NCBI GenBank assembly: GCA_963735595.1
Contig: CAVTLK010000005.1
Location: 320,001-384,000, forward strand
DNA length: 64,000 bases
From: an uncultured delta proteobacterium
GTDB taxonomy: Bacteria; Desulfobacterota; Zymogenia; Zymogenales; Zymogenaceae
Direction: 5' to 3'
Shown here: one piece after another, positions 1,097-45,113 of the stretch
How the letters are laid out: each line of letters starts with the position of its first letter
Position numbering within the stretch: position 1 is the stretch's first letter
Position numbers and translations under genes: made by a program
The notes under the pieces: model-generated
The model's database searches: none
What the model was told of the DNA's origin: nothing
The model's input: only the letters and a program-made list of their open reading frames with translations

Positions 1097-1693
1097 CTAA
1101 GCCATCTTGATCTCGTAGTAGCACGTGTCGTCACCCTTTGCCTTGCATTTCGTCTCGATGACCTGCCCCGCGTTTTTGCCGTACGCCCAGTCGGCGATGT
1201 ATTGAAGCGCACCTGTATATTGAAGACAGACCGGCCTGTTCGTTCCCGAGGCGTGATACGGTGAGCACACCGTGCAGTCAAAGCAGTCGAAATCAACCCT
1301 CCCCGTGCCGGTCATCACCGTCTTCCCCTTGCCGATCACAATCGAGAGGAATTCGCTGCACTTGTTATATTTTTCATCGGGGGTAAGGTCCTTAAAGGCG
1401 TCAAACGCATGGCCGAACTCGTTCCCGTATTGTACGGCCGCGTATCCGACCCGCCTCCATATGCTCAGCGCTCCCTTGAGCCCGACGAGCTCGGCGACCT
1501 CGATATAGAGCCGGGATTGTGATTCCACGGAAATGTTGGGACTCAAATCGTACGGGGGGGGAGCGTCATAGATGTCCTCGAACCCCGCATTTCTGAAAAC
1601 TATTCTCGCGCCGTTGTTCCCCAGGATTTCGGTGAAGCAATCGACAGCCGCACGTATGGACATATTCGTCGCCCTTCTCTCGTCGCTGCTCAT
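1097..1693 (-). CDS. V4R (4-vinyl reductase) domain protein
   Basis: C-terminal CxxC...PVC...G.L...V.ETKCKAKGDDTC.Y pattern typical of V4R; AGGAG RBS favours ATG at 1693. Confidence 0.8.
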   Translation of the reverse strand: MSSDERRATNMSIRAAVDCFTEILGNNGARIVFRNAGFEDIYDAPPPYDLSPNISVESQSRLYIEVAELVGLKGALSIWRRVGYAAVQYGNEFGHAFDAFKDLTPDEKYNKCSEFLSIVIGKGKTVMTGTGRVDFDCFDCTVCSPYHASGTNRPVCLQYTGALQYIADWAYGKNAGQVIETKCKAKGDDTCYYEIKMA

Positions 1694-2232
1694 AATGGAC
1701 AACTCCTAAAATTGATAATGTTAGCATAGCAAAACGGTATTGTACAATCGCTTTCGCGCCCTTTGGGTCTCGCGGATGGCTCCACCACGCACGCACTGCG
1801 CCCGGCAGATCGTACGACCCTCAATCCAGGCGAGCGAGGAATTGAGGCCCAGTAATACTAGAGCAATTACTATACCAAGCTGGAATAGAGGGGCTTTGAA
1901 TTATTTACGATACTCTTAAGAAAAAGACGGAGTTTATAGCACGAATGTCCTAACCGGTCGCAACGCGCCTTCCGAACGAAGTGGCTGGATGAACGCAAAC
2001 TGCCAAATATTTGGCACCGGAGGGAGTTGCACGGTATTACTGGCTTTTAACCTGGCTCAAAGCGCAAATTATTCTTCAGGTCGTTTAATAAACAGGCAAA
2101 GATGTTTCCGAATTTCGTGCAGACCGCTTCAATTATTCGTATTTTTCGTTGGGTACACCTAAAAAGAAGGAAAAAGGGGCACGGTCTCCGTTTGGACTCG
2201 ATTTACCCGGCCCTCCGCAGGCCTTCGGTCCC

Positions 2233-42954: not shown

Positions 42955-42983
42955 TTGACAAATATAGTTAAGCTGCTATACTA
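42955..42983 (+). promoter_or_regulatory. Sigma70 promoter of the marR gene with overlapping operator-like palindrome
   Basis: TTGACA 42955-42960, 16 bp, TATACT 42977-42982; palindrome TAGTnnAGC-T-GCTnnACTA 42965-42983. Confidence 0.75.
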
Positions 42984-42988
42984 TCCCC

Positions 42989-43465
42989 ATGTTGGACGAC
43001 CTTGAAAGGTTCGAGATACTCACCGACGAGGTTAACCGCCTCATAGCGCGGGTCCAATCCCTTCATACGCCCAACTTCGATTTCGGCACTGGGATACCGT
43101 TGTATCGCGCCGAGATTCACACTATTGATATTGTCGGTAAAAATCCGGGGATCAACGTAACCCGGCTTTCCGAACGTATCGGGGTCACCAAAGGCGCGGT
43201 TTCCCAGATGCTGACAAGGCTTGCCAAAAAGAAGCTGATAGAAAAAAGGGCGGTATCGGGAAACGAGAAGGAACGCATGATCGAACTGACCGGCCTCGGG
43301 CACCTGGCTTATGAAAATCACCGGACCCTTCACCGCCATATCTTTACGTTCCTCCAAAACCACTACGGCGCGGCGCTGCCGTCGCGGCTCGAACGGTTTC
43401 AGGAAGTGGTCGGTGAGCTTTCGAAAATCCTTTCGACCGTAGAAGGGCATAAGGATACGGTGTAA
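42989..43465 (+). CDS. MarR-family transcriptional regulator
   Basis: EIHTIDIVGKNPGINVTRLSERIGVTKGAVSQMLTRL.KK.LI...IELTGLG winged HTH. Confidence 0.93.
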   Translation: MLDDLERFEILTDEVNRLIARVQSLHTPNFDFGTGIPLYRAEIHTIDIVGKNPGINVTRLSERIGVTKGAVSQMLTRLAKKKLIEKRAVSGNEKERMIELTGLGHLAYENHRTLHRHIFTFLQNHYGAALPSRLERFQEVVGELSKILSTVEGHKDTV

Positions 43466-43520: not shown

Positions 43521-44123
43521 GTGACCGGGAAAAGAGATACGGCCGCGGCGCGTGGTGGAAAATATTCCATCTGTCCGTGGTGGCTGGTGAAGTCTTTCGA
43601 TAATTTCCTTCGGCCGCTCGTTCATGACTCCCGGAAGCTCTTTGGCCCGTACGTCCGGCCAAATATGACGGCCGTCGATGTCGGGTGCGGGCGGGGGTTT
43701 GCCTCCCTCGGGCTCGCCCGGTTGGTCGGCGGCGGCGGAAATGTGATCGCCGCCGATCTCCAGCCCGAGATGCTCGAAATGGTGAGGAATCGGGCGGAAA
43801 AGAACGGACTCTCCGAACGGATACTGACGCACCGGTCCGCTCAGGGCAGGATCGGCGTTACGGGGCCGGTCGATTTCGTCCTCGCATTCTGGATGCTGCA
43901 CGAGGTGCCGGACGCCGCGGCGTTTTGTGCGGAGGTATCGGCGATGCTGGCGCCCGGCGGCCATTTCTTTGTGGCCGAGCCGCTCTTTCATGTGACGCAG
44001 CGCGGTTTCAAGGAAATGACCGAGGTTGCCGGCGCGGCAGGTCTGGCCGTTTTCGAGCACCCGCGCGTTGCCCTCAGCCGGGCGGTGGTATTCACGAAGA
44101 AGAAAAGGAGAAAGGAGGAATAA
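43521..44123 (+). CDS. Class I SAM-dependent methyltransferase
   Basis: VDVGCGRG motif I, ADLQPEML, FWMLHEV, LAPGG; N-terminal CPWW motif; GGGAGG RBS with GTG start. Confidence 0.92.
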   Translation: MTGKRDTAAARGGKYSICPWWLVKSFDNFLRPLVHDSRKLFGPYVRPNMTAVDVGCGRGFASLGLARLVGGGGNVIAADLQPEMLEMVRNRAEKNGLSERILTHRSAQGRIGVTGPVDFVLAFWMLHEVPDAAAFCAEVSAMLAPGGHFFVAEPLFHVTQRGFKEMTEVAGAAGLAVFEHPRVALSRAVVFTKKKRRKEE

Positions 44124-44126
44124 ATT

Positions 44127-44924
44127 ATGAGAAGCGAACAGTCACCTAAGGGCGGCGTCGTCGCCGCGGAAGGAACGCTCTACCTGGGGGTCGGGCGCTA
44201 CATGATTACCATTCCGCCGTGCCTGATGAGGATGGGGGCCGCCGGAAGCGCCCGGCAGGCGGATAAGCTGCTGGCCCGTTTGTCCCCGGAACACCACCTC
44301 GTTCGGGATTTCGTCGTGACCGAGATCCCGAGAAAGGCGGCGTCTCTCTCCGCGGACTACATCGCGCATCAATTGGACCTTCCCATTGGACGGGTTCGGG
44401 ACATCGTTGATGAGCTCGAAAAGGGGAAGGTGTTTCTATTCAGGAATGAGCGTGGTGAGGTTACCTGGGCCTACCCGGTGACCGCAGAACCGACGCCGCA
44501 CCACGTGACGTTCAGCACGGGCGAGCAGATCTATGCGGCCTGAGCCATCGACGCCTTGGCGCTGCCCTTCGTGCAAGGGCAATTGATAAAACGGCCGCTC
44601 TCGTTCGTCATCAGGAGCGAATGCAAGAACAGTGGAGACCCCATCGAGATTGCCATCGACAGCGACCTGCGATACCGGGTCGCCGACGAGCAAGGCGGCG
44701 TGAGGGTGTTCGTCCCGATGGTGGACGTGATAACGCTCGACGAGCCCAGCATCATCGATTCCTTCTGACGACGATCGGTGTTCTTCCGGTCGGAAGAAGA
44801 CGCGAAGAAATACCGTCGTGCCTGCAAGGGGGTTAAGGGCCTCTACCTTACGCTCGACCATGGCGTATATCTCACGAGGGTCATCCAGTCGGCAATCTTC
44901 GCTTTCTCGAAACGTGCCCGGTGA
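44127..44924 (+). CDS. MerB (organomercurial lyase)-like protein with two in-frame UGA codons, probable Sec139 and Sec214 (265 aa)
   Basis: One frame: ...WAYPVTAEPTPHHVTF...IYAA[UGA 44541]AIDAL...SECKNSG...IIDSF[UGA 44766]RRSVFFRSEEDA...; aligns by eye to MerB YAWC96ALD99, C117 and SFC159CHVHFFAS. Confidence 0.85.
44563..44581 (+). promoter_or_regulatory. Candidate bacterial SECIS after UGA 44541-44543
   Basis: Perfect 7-bp stem TGCCCTT-CGTGC-AAGGGCA starting 20 nt after the UGA, G-containing loop. Confidence 0.6.
44781..44798 (+). promoter_or_regulatory. Candidate bacterial SECIS after UGA 44766-44768
   Basis: Perfect 7-bp stem TTCTTCC-GGTC-GGAAGAA starting 13 nt after the UGA, loop begins with G. 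Confidence 0.7.
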
Positions 44925-44978
44925 GGGATCTTTTACCCGGCGAATCCGGGTTGAAGGGAGATACCTCGTTTGAAAACA

Positions 44979-45018
44979 GGGGCGGCTTCCCAGGAGGGGG
45001 GCCGCCCCGATTGTTTTA
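44979..45018 (+). terminator. Probable terminator of the marR-methyltransferase-merB-like unit
   Basis: GGGGCGGC...GCCGCCCC hairpin followed by ATTGTTTT. Confidence 0.6.
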
Positions 45019-45113
45019 TGCCGTAATGGTGAGGTACCTTGCTTCATGCCCGTCGGCCCGAACCCGGACTCGATGGGGGGCAGCCCCCTCTCTTCGGACT
45101 TTCCCTTTTTGCG

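Follow-up and report, generated by a model that had tools for sequence, protein, structure and literature searches.

A predicted MerB-like selenoprotein with selenocysteine at both catalytic cysteine positions in an uncultured delta proteobacterium

Results

Two TGA codons lie within the frame of one MerB-like gene

The DNA analyzed here (the window) is a stretch of 64,000 nt from the genome of an uncultured delta proteobacterium (Desulfobacterota, Zymogenaceae; assembly GCA_963735595.1, contig CAVTLK010000005.1, positions 320,001 to 384,000). All coordinates are positions in the window unless a locus or contig is named, and its own genome is referred to as G000. Positions 44127-44924 very probably encode a genuine selenoprotein of the MerB family, in which two UGA codons are predicted to direct the insertion of selenocysteine (Sec, U). 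The features of the gene are as follows.

44112-44119, + strand: Shine-Dalgarno-like AAGGAGGA, read from the sequence, 7 bases 5' of the ATG of the MerB-like gene
44127-44924, + strand: predicted MerB-like selenoprotein gene, 265 codons and a stop, with Sec139 and Sec214
44541-44543, + strand: UGA 1, predicted Sec139, at the MerB Cys96 position by alignment; TGA in homologues
44550-44552, + strand: GAC, Asp142, at the position of MerB Asp99 (proton donor) by alignment
44564-44580, + strand: hairpin 1, resembling a selenocysteine insertion sequence (SECIS), GCCCUU-CGUGC-AAGGGC; the stem begins 20 nt past UGA 1
44622-44624, + strand: TGC, Cys166, at the MerB Cys117 position by alignment
44766-44768, + strand: UGA 2, predicted Sec214, at the MerB Cys159 position by alignment; TGA in homologues
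44781-44798, + strand: SECIS-like hairpin 2, UUCUUCC-GGUC-GGAAGAA; the stem begins 12 nt past UGA 2, and two more pairs extend it to 44778-44801
44922-44924, + strand: UGA as a true stop; relatives terminate with TAA or TAG within one residue of the site

The list of open reading frames (ORFs) cuts the gene into 44127-44543, 44556-44768 and 44778-44924. All three pieces are in the same frame, which is broken only by the TGAs at 44541-44543 and 44766-44768 and closes at the TGA at 44922-44924. When the first two TGAs are read as U, the product is 265 residues long and contains IYAA-U-AIDAL, then SECKNSG, then IIDSF-U-RRSVFFRS; the window copy has zero further stops or frameshifts. Since relatives carry TAA or TAG at the same place, the third TGA is taken to be a real stop. 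A preliminary description of this DNA had proposed a single frame split by TGA at 44541 and 44766 and ending at 44922. The ORF list and the readthrough translation both agree with that proposal, and the translation is identical to the 265-residue product and motifs it had quoted.

Both TGA codons are conserved among homologues

Among the 60 nearest genomes, four encode a homologue detectable by tblastn (54-90% identity), each with TGA at the same two columns. A search of 401 genomes of the phylum gave 31 matches at E <= 1e-5, 25 of them strong (E <= 2.2e-76). In the alignment of these 25 (A4), which range from 39 to 92% protein identity to the window product, TGA is found at both columns in 25/25; the first site is U and the second-site motif is F-U in every one. 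A scan of 185,579 species, with one genome per species, confirmed 252 of 268 candidate stretches, and in the best 80 of the 252 loci, where codon states were read, TGA/TGA, Asp142 and Cys166 were present in 80/80. The agreement of the TGAs with these two columns goes well past coincidence. Both Asp142 and Cys166 are likewise invariant in the 25 phylum homologues. When the 185,579 species were scanned again with a different member as the seed, 304 of 424 stretches were confirmed. Based on record titles, the best 80 loci comprise 39 of Chloroflexota type (plus 2 Ca. Aquidulcis), 29 of delta/Desulfobacterota type and 10 others: two each from Bacteroidota and Binatia and one each from Gemmatimonadota, Rokubacteria, Spirochaetales, Margulisbacteria, Proteobacteria and an unclassified source.

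Cys is found at these sites in some relatives. It occupies site 1 in P0155, P0006, P0007, P0012, P0022, P0032 and P0035, which are truncated at site 2, and site 2 in P0003 and P0005, which have Ser at site 1. The pattern is what the preliminary description had expected of a Sec protein, with TGA throughout, Cys in some branches and never a variable residue within the clade. Conservation beyond the UGAs, which it had also expected, is found downstream of both. The ratio of nonsynonymous to synonymous substitution rates (dN/dS) against five relatives is 0.12-0.50 across segments 1-138, 140-213 and 215-265, a range that covers the 12 of 15 segment-by-relative comparisons with unsaturated dS. As estimated from these ratios, purifying selection is continued past each TGA.

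Contigs of four metagenome runs also cover both TGA codons, one of them spanning 44127-44915. Among the 40 of 81 contig differences listed, none changes either TGA; the preliminary description had predicted that independent reads would be free of TGC and TGT there, and neither appears among those 40.

Copies of the gene in two genomes carry frameshifts. In genome G002 there is an additional copy whose frame shifts around residue 202 (L009/L011, G002:C7:5021-5813). The copy in G003 (L005/L010, G003:C7) is shifted near residue 21-30, and its methyltransferase ORF is disrupted too; assembly errors are as likely as decay here because G003 has only 7 contigs. More distant MerB-like genes show other combinations at the two sites. 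One (L044, G116:C1:3284229-3287771, ~1492-2046, minus strand) matches the profile at E 2.9e-11 and has TGA at both catalytic columns without the Asp, in YAM-U-AGGA and GF-U-PRVQFF; judged by these motifs it may represent a second, Asp-less two-Sec branch. Two others are shorter. That in G379 (L046, G379:C9:69837-73223) combines Cys at site 1 with TGA at site 2 (YAMCALDA ... SL-U-RTMVF) and lies directly 3' of a MerR-type regulator ORF, and that in G380 (L045, G380:C57:18079-21471) is Cys/Cys. Given the Cys/TGA form of G379, single-Sec MerB-like forms exist beyond the C-U type of SaoL, the known MerB-like selenoprotein discussed below.

A candidate SECIS hairpin follows each TGA

At most conserved residues of the protein the codon entropy is 0.7-2.4 bits, with lower values of 0.3-0.5 at Asp142, Asp178 and Gln254. 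Synonymous sites are frozen, with entropy near zero, only at codons 147-151 and 219-224. The codons of Pro147-Gly151 are CCC in 24/25, TTC in 25/25, GTG in 25/25, CAA in 24/25 and GGG in 25/25, and within Phe219-Glu224 TTC is found in 24/24, TTC in 25/25, GAA in 25/25 and GAA in 21/24. These frozen codons build GCCCUU-CGUGC-AAGGGC (hairpin 1) and UUCUUCY-GGUC-RGAAGAA (hairpin 2).

Hairpin 1 is 92% paired across the alignment; changes in its five inner pairs (columns 31-35/41-45) are wobble-compatible, one each at two pairs, and the outer pair (30-46) is unpaired in 3/24. The closing pair of hairpin 2 (28-33) is U-A in 15 sequences, C-G in 10 and unpaired in none, and the Arg/Trp221 difference (CGG/UGG) is tied to a synonymous Ser222 codon (UCG/UCA). 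In hairpin 2, 96.9% of cells are paired, compared with 46-66% after a shift of the partner by 1-3 columns, and its observed pairing or covariation score was reached by 0 of 500 shuffles. Single-sequence folds of the 70 nt after UGA 1 and UGA 2 have Z-scores of 0.35 and -1.81 and are not informative alone. In bacterial SECIS elements 16-37 nt separate the UGA from the loop. Each UGA of the MerB-like gene is followed shortly by a stem-loop with a G/U-containing apical loop, and both are predicted SECIS elements on the evidence of the frozen codons and one compensated pair.

Several contigs of other organisms match the window gene only at 44538-44590; a TGA is present just upstream, in their loose ends. 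Because these contigs match only there, the summed contig depth rises 3- to 8-fold at 44532-44585 in two of the four runs (X2 and X4). As judged from such contigs, DNA-level conservation of the putative first SECIS region extends well outside the species.

The genome encodes the Sec machinery

The preliminary description had made Sec insertion depend on selA, selB, selC and selD, and all four were found in the genome, selC as tRNA-Sec(UCA). SelA was present in 10/10 carriers spot-checked, drawn from 24 other carriers. The selD of the genome (G000:C3:6046-6975, L012) is itself a predicted selenoprotein gene with one in-frame TGA, in GUAAK. A hairpin about 27 nt past this UGA, GCGCA-GGUCA-UGCGC, has a 5-nt loop that contains the GGUC of hairpin 2. 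GGUC is likewise the apical loop in the fdhF SECIS of E. coli.

The product has the MerB fold and places U on both catalytic Cys columns

The readthrough product passes the Pfam MerB profile PF03243 (69.8 bits against a 27-bit cut-off, E 2.7e-19), with residues 119-251 on profile positions 2-122 of 126, and the gene is the sole PF03243 match in a search of its whole genome. In a HMMER alignment to solved MerB chains (3f2g/1s6l, E 4e-4 to 7e-4), U139 falls on Cys96 (YAWCALD), D142 on Asp99, C166 on Cys117 and U214 on Cys159 (SFCC/SFCS), just as the preliminary description had placed the two UGAs and the retained Asp99 and Cys117 equivalents. Of the MerB catalytic residues, the Asp is thus kept (D142) and both Cys are replaced by UGA, the chalcogen ligand being kept in kind and not in identity.

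An AlphaFold2 model, built from a 27-sequence alignment with U supplied as C, has a mean per-residue confidence (pLDDT) of 87.9 and a predicted template modeling score (pTM) of 0.86. Foldseek comparison of this model with the PDB gave 11 top matches that are all MerB or MerB2 (probability 1.00, E 3.9e-12 to 1.1e-7, template modeling score on the target 0.60-0.81), and weak winged-helix matches rank next. The modeled product of 44127-44924 is of the MerB family and fold, in keeping with the relationship first proposed for it. Relative to MerB it has ~45 additional N-terminal residues that form a beta-hairpin and a helix, according to the secondary structure of the model and the alignment ranges.

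The neighborhood of the gene

In the window the MerB-like gene is the last of three genes, after a MarR-family regulator gene and an S-adenosylmethionine (SAM)-dependent methyltransferase gene, with a promoter-like site ahead of the unit and a terminator-like hairpin behind it.

42955-42982, + strand: sigma-70-like promoter, TTGACA-16-TATACT with TG before the -10, just 5' of marR; 11/12 matches, a consensus match only
42989-43465, + strand: MarR-family regulator gene, first of the putative operon (PF12802 6.4e-10, PF01047 1e-8)
43521-44123, + strand: class I SAM-dependent methyltransferase gene (Methyltransf_25 6.4e-15); its stop precedes the ATG of the MerB-like gene by 3 bases
44979-45018, + strand: intrinsic-terminator-like hairpin of 13 pairs (11 G-C) at 44979-45008, with a T-rich tail

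Besides the MarR regulator and the SAM methyltransferase, the neighbors in the window are an AsnC-like regulator and a peptidase. In 9/25 phylum loci there is a MarR gene just 5' of the MerB-like gene, directly adjacent in six (G153, G202, G311, G259, G359 and G279) and with the methyltransferase in between in three (the window, G002 and G003). The methyltransferase adjoins the MerB-like gene only in the genus of the window (G000, G002 and G003). It matches generic SAM domains only, all far under cut-offs; as a candidate ArsM it was rejected, with 50 bits against a 510-bit cut-off. MerR-family regulators adjoin four of the phylum loci, all scoring under the MerR cut-off. A tblastn search of the 80 wider loci with MarR, MerR and methyltransferase queries found a MerR-type gene upstream in 11, MarR in 3 and none in 66. 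Pfam scans covered 140 proteins of 25 fetched loci (24 related loci and the distant G116 locus, L073) and 83 neighbors at 41 of the 80 wider loci; no recurring enzymatic or transport partner was found in either.

Other proteins were seen next to the two-Sec gene at individual loci. In one genome of the same family as the window (L051, G006:C35:12096-24878) it lies between a 386-aa 4Fe-4S protein (5') and a homologue of the MttB-family methyltransferases (3', same strand), and a similar 388-aa 4Fe-4S protein adjoins it in G286 (L061). Small SnoaL-like proteins are encoded directly 5' of it in three unrelated metagenome-assembled genomes (MAGs) of Dehalococcoidia, Gemmatimonadota and Desulfobacterales (L085:2408-2818, L106:2478-2978 and L142:2655-3008), and further upstream in G089 (L057:2646-3020).

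As for mercury methylation, HgcA scores over its cut-off in 13/25 carriers compared with 105/376 of the other genomes among the 401 (Fisher p = 0.02, uncorrected for relatedness), and in 0/5 carriers of the window's family; the association of carriers with HgcA is a weak hint. Directly 5' of the two-Sec gene of a Chloroflexota MAG (L102:1760-2938, + strand) is encoded a 392-aa protein with a CdhD-type corrinoid domain and a C-terminal 4Fe-4S motif, possibly a fused HgcAB-like protein to judge from this domain order; it is a single case.

Discussion

Proposed function and mechanism

Given a gene of the MerB fold with two predicted UGA-Sec codons at the Cys96 and Cys159 positions, each followed by a candidate SECIS hairpin, the product is likely a di-selenol enzyme, probably acting in the cleavage of a carbon-metal(loid) bond. 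Because the Sec-Asp-Sec triad is invariant on the MerB fold, the following mechanism is proposed. SelB with Sec-tRNA(Sec) would decode both UGAs, with the two hairpins serving as SECIS elements. The metal atom of an organometal(loid) would then be bound by the two selenolates, and Asp142, in the role of MerB Asp99, would supply the proton for the departing carbon. The three-gene unit of marR, the SAM methyltransferase gene and the MerB-like gene would fit a detoxification function induced by a ligand or by stress. Selone mimics of organomercurial lyase, as described in the available part of one review, cleave the Hg-C bond faster than their sulfur analogues, the thiones (PMC11639659), and di-selenolate chemistry is therefore plausible.

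Taking its motifs and modeled fold together, we lean slightly towards the MerB-like protein being a carbon-metal(loid) lyase. Organomercurials are the obvious candidate substrate, and other soft organometal(loid)s are equally open; that it is an organomercurial lyase specifically is doubtful.

A number of observations weigh against such a selenium-dependent lyase. With regard to Sec insertion, the covariation measures of hairpin 1 were reached by 39 to 103 of 500 shuffles. Hairpin 1 gives little covariation because its sequence barely varies, and as this control is non-significant its support is the frozen synonymous sites. An Rfam scan of 44000-45100 at E <= 10 returned chance-level matches only, and no curated bacterial SECIS family. 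The constancy of the TGAs in the metagenome contigs rests on the 40 of 81 differences listed plus the cross-genome data. As all 160 titled loci of the two scans (80 + 80) are MAGs, no cultured carrier was seen. No RNA run was listed with this stretch, the best DNA runs sharing 0.07-0.16 of its words, a result that does not bear on expression.

With regard to function, no merA, merT, merP or SAO genes are found nearby, either in the window or among the 140 neighbors of the 25 loci. The regulators next to the gene are of generic MarR or MerR-family type and score below every NCBIfam cut-off, and outside the Desulfobacterota branch the neighbors are heterogeneous. With no mer or SAO genes and such varied neighbors, the context gives no clue to the substrate. 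In the genome of the window, no protein scores above the HgcA cut-off. A di-selenolate should also hold Hg(II) very tightly, so that its release without MerA would be a difficulty for an organomercurial substrate. Because Hg-Se binding is tight and MerA is lacking, mercury need not be the natural substrate.

Alternative explanations

The alternative that survives best, less probable than a lyase and still a real possibility, is a genuine two-Sec protein that uses the MerB scaffold for something else. It might bind or traffic soft metals or selenium, for example by sequestering Hg(II), Cu(I) or Ag(I) or by carrying selenide, or it might be a diselenide/selenol redox protein. This would account for a gene that no conserved enzymatic partner, reductase or transporter adjoins, and two Sec residues joined by the fold could make a diselenide or a very tight metal site. 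In the available text of Haft & Gwadz (bioRxiv 10.1101/2022.07.06.499078) it is argued that several Sec or CU sites of the SAO system may bind and not catalyze, and it is stated that MerB itself binds other metals at the same site. However, a pure binding site would not need the equivalent of the proton donor, which is invariant in 25/25 and 80/80 loci as Asp142, and the entire MerB fold is retained, including the N-terminal domain. Both points favor the carbon-metal(loid) lyase.

A pseudogene is very improbable, and so is a set of two or three small independent genes for which the TGAs would be ordinary stops. Gene callers do split the frame, and public records give the same impression. A profile search of 1.84 billion representatives yielded 880 matches with E <= 1e-3, of which 283 have E <= 1e-10 and 37 have E <= 1e-30. 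Among the best 150 representatives, 92 are cut off precisely at site 1; a further 7, with Cys at site 1, and 5 others are cut off at site 2. W/W, or W at a single site, was seen in 3, Ser/Cys in 3, Gly/Cys in 3 and Cys/Cys in 1, with 26 fragments gapped at both columns and 7 in other states or fragments. The frameshifted second copy of G002 and the N-terminal frameshift of the G003 copy point the same way. However, TGA occupies the same two catalytic columns in 25/25 and 80/80 loci across several phyla, down to 39% identity in A4, dN/dS is 0.12-0.50 after each TGA, and the window copy is otherwise intact, with a hairpin and frozen synonymous sites after each TGA. The truncated public entries are better read as the miscalls by standard pipelines that the preliminary description had suspected of this gene. 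Every named match in a search of 5.8 billion proteins is a "hypothetical protein", the NCBI entry of the G006 copy is a 162-aa 'hypothetical protein' that ends at the first TGA, and three JGI entries translate both TGAs as Trp. Being systematically mis-annotated in this way, the family is invisible to merB gene surveys.

Nor is the two-Sec protein likely to be a plain member of the described selenoprotein family SaoL, a reading to which we give very little weight. According to the available text of Haft & Gwadz, SaoL is a MerB-like selenoprotein of a nine-gene SAO locus; it keeps Cys at the position of Cys96, and its single Sec is part of a C-U motif at Cys159/160. The preliminary description had named SaoL as a Sec-containing MerB homologue, which is correct, but the published form, as far as it is described there, is single-Sec. 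The two share a MerB-family fold, a UGA-Sec at the Cys159 position, the retained Asp, anaerobe carriers and database entries truncated at the UGA, and the best NCBIfam match of the window protein is indeed the SaoL model NF040728 (E 2.1e-16). Yet that match spans only residues 51-180 and scores 60.3 against a cut-off of 140 bits; the matches to the NCBIfam models of organomercurial lyase MerB (NF009710 and NF033555; EC 4.99.1.2) were also under the cut-offs (53.9 against 193 and 52.1 against 200 bits), and no model of NCBIfam 20.0 (June 2026) is passed. Unlike SaoL as described, the window protein is predicted to have Sec at the first position as well as the second, F-U in place of C-U and two separate hairpins; it also has the ~45 extra N-terminal residues relative to MerB. 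None of the SAO neighbors (ABC transporter, SaoC, SaoT, SaoD and SaoE), and no thioredoxin-like or DsrE-like gene, was found in the window locus or the 24 related loci.

Least probable of all is a reassigned genetic code (4 or 25), under which TGA would mean Trp or some other standard amino acid: some public translations do carry W at both sites (P0004, P0152, P0153 and P0154), but these are short metagenome contigs of 1.0-1.3 kb, for which a gene caller using another code is the likeliest source, whereas in the genome of the window TGA terminates 295/805 long ORFs, tRNA-Trp has the anticodon CCA and the only UGA-reading tRNA, with the sole UCA anticodon, is tRNA-Sec, and Trp is unable to replace a metal-binding Cys at columns where relatives carry Cys.

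Relation to known MerB-like proteins

In its modeled structure the two-Sec protein resembles MerB (plasmid R831b; 3F0O, 3F0P, 3F2F and 1S6L) and MerB2 (5C17), with what appears to be the same fold over ~205-230 aligned columns. By alignment it has in common with MerB two chalcogen ligands, the Asp and the Cys117 equivalent, as well as passing PF03243. Unlike MerB, it has Sec for Cys at both ligands, fails both NCBIfam MerB models at ~20% identity and is not surrounded by a mer operon; its carriers belong to uncultured lineages of anaerobe type and are not plasmids of aerobes.

An 'Organic mercuric lyase MerB2' selenoprotein, with 17 proteins in 17 organisms, is listed in supplementary file 4 of Peng et al. 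2016 (PMC5029168). Both that entry and the two-Sec family are MerB-type proteins counted as selenoproteins. The overlap between them cannot be judged because the table, in the part available, gives no sequences, Sec number or organisms. Later reviews, in the portions available, equate the MerB-like entry of Peng et al. with SaoL, with 1 Sec in a CU motif (PMC13188914). In the accessible parts of two catalogues (PMC9312934 and PMC13188914), SaoL is the sole MerB-like entry, and the 2026 one (PMC13188914) gives its Sec number as 1; the main text of the GOS paper (PMC2398784) has no MerB entry. In the literature on MerB-like selenoproteins that was searched, SaoL was the only one found described, and the two-Sec form is in no catalogue examined. 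Relative to the curated models and these catalogues, the window gene and its homologues appear to be a new two-Sec variant of the MerB-like selenoproteins, distinct from SaoL.

Implications

Replacement of both catalytic Cys of a metal-carbon lyase by Sec would be an unusual use of this amino acid. The family is large: 880 representative clusters match at E <= 1e-3, and the 185,579 species genomes yielded 252 to 304 loci. Its carriers are uncultured sediment and soil lineages, Desulfobacterota and Chloroflexota among them. Whatever the substrate, the gene offers selenoprotein annotation pipelines a clear case of two predicted SECIS elements within 230 bases.

We regard as rather unlikely, and mention for its consequences, that a di-selenolate MerB could be the missing demethylase of anoxic habitats that is independent of the mer operon, present in anaerobes of sediment and soil, many mercury methylators among them, and acting on methylmercury or on methylated forms of arsenic, antimony or tin. 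If an organomercurial or a methylated metalloid does prove to be the substrate, the family would bear on how methylmercury is degraded without oxygen and without a mer operon, and, were the demethylase role true, selenium would enzymatically control the net methylmercury balance of anoxic habitats.

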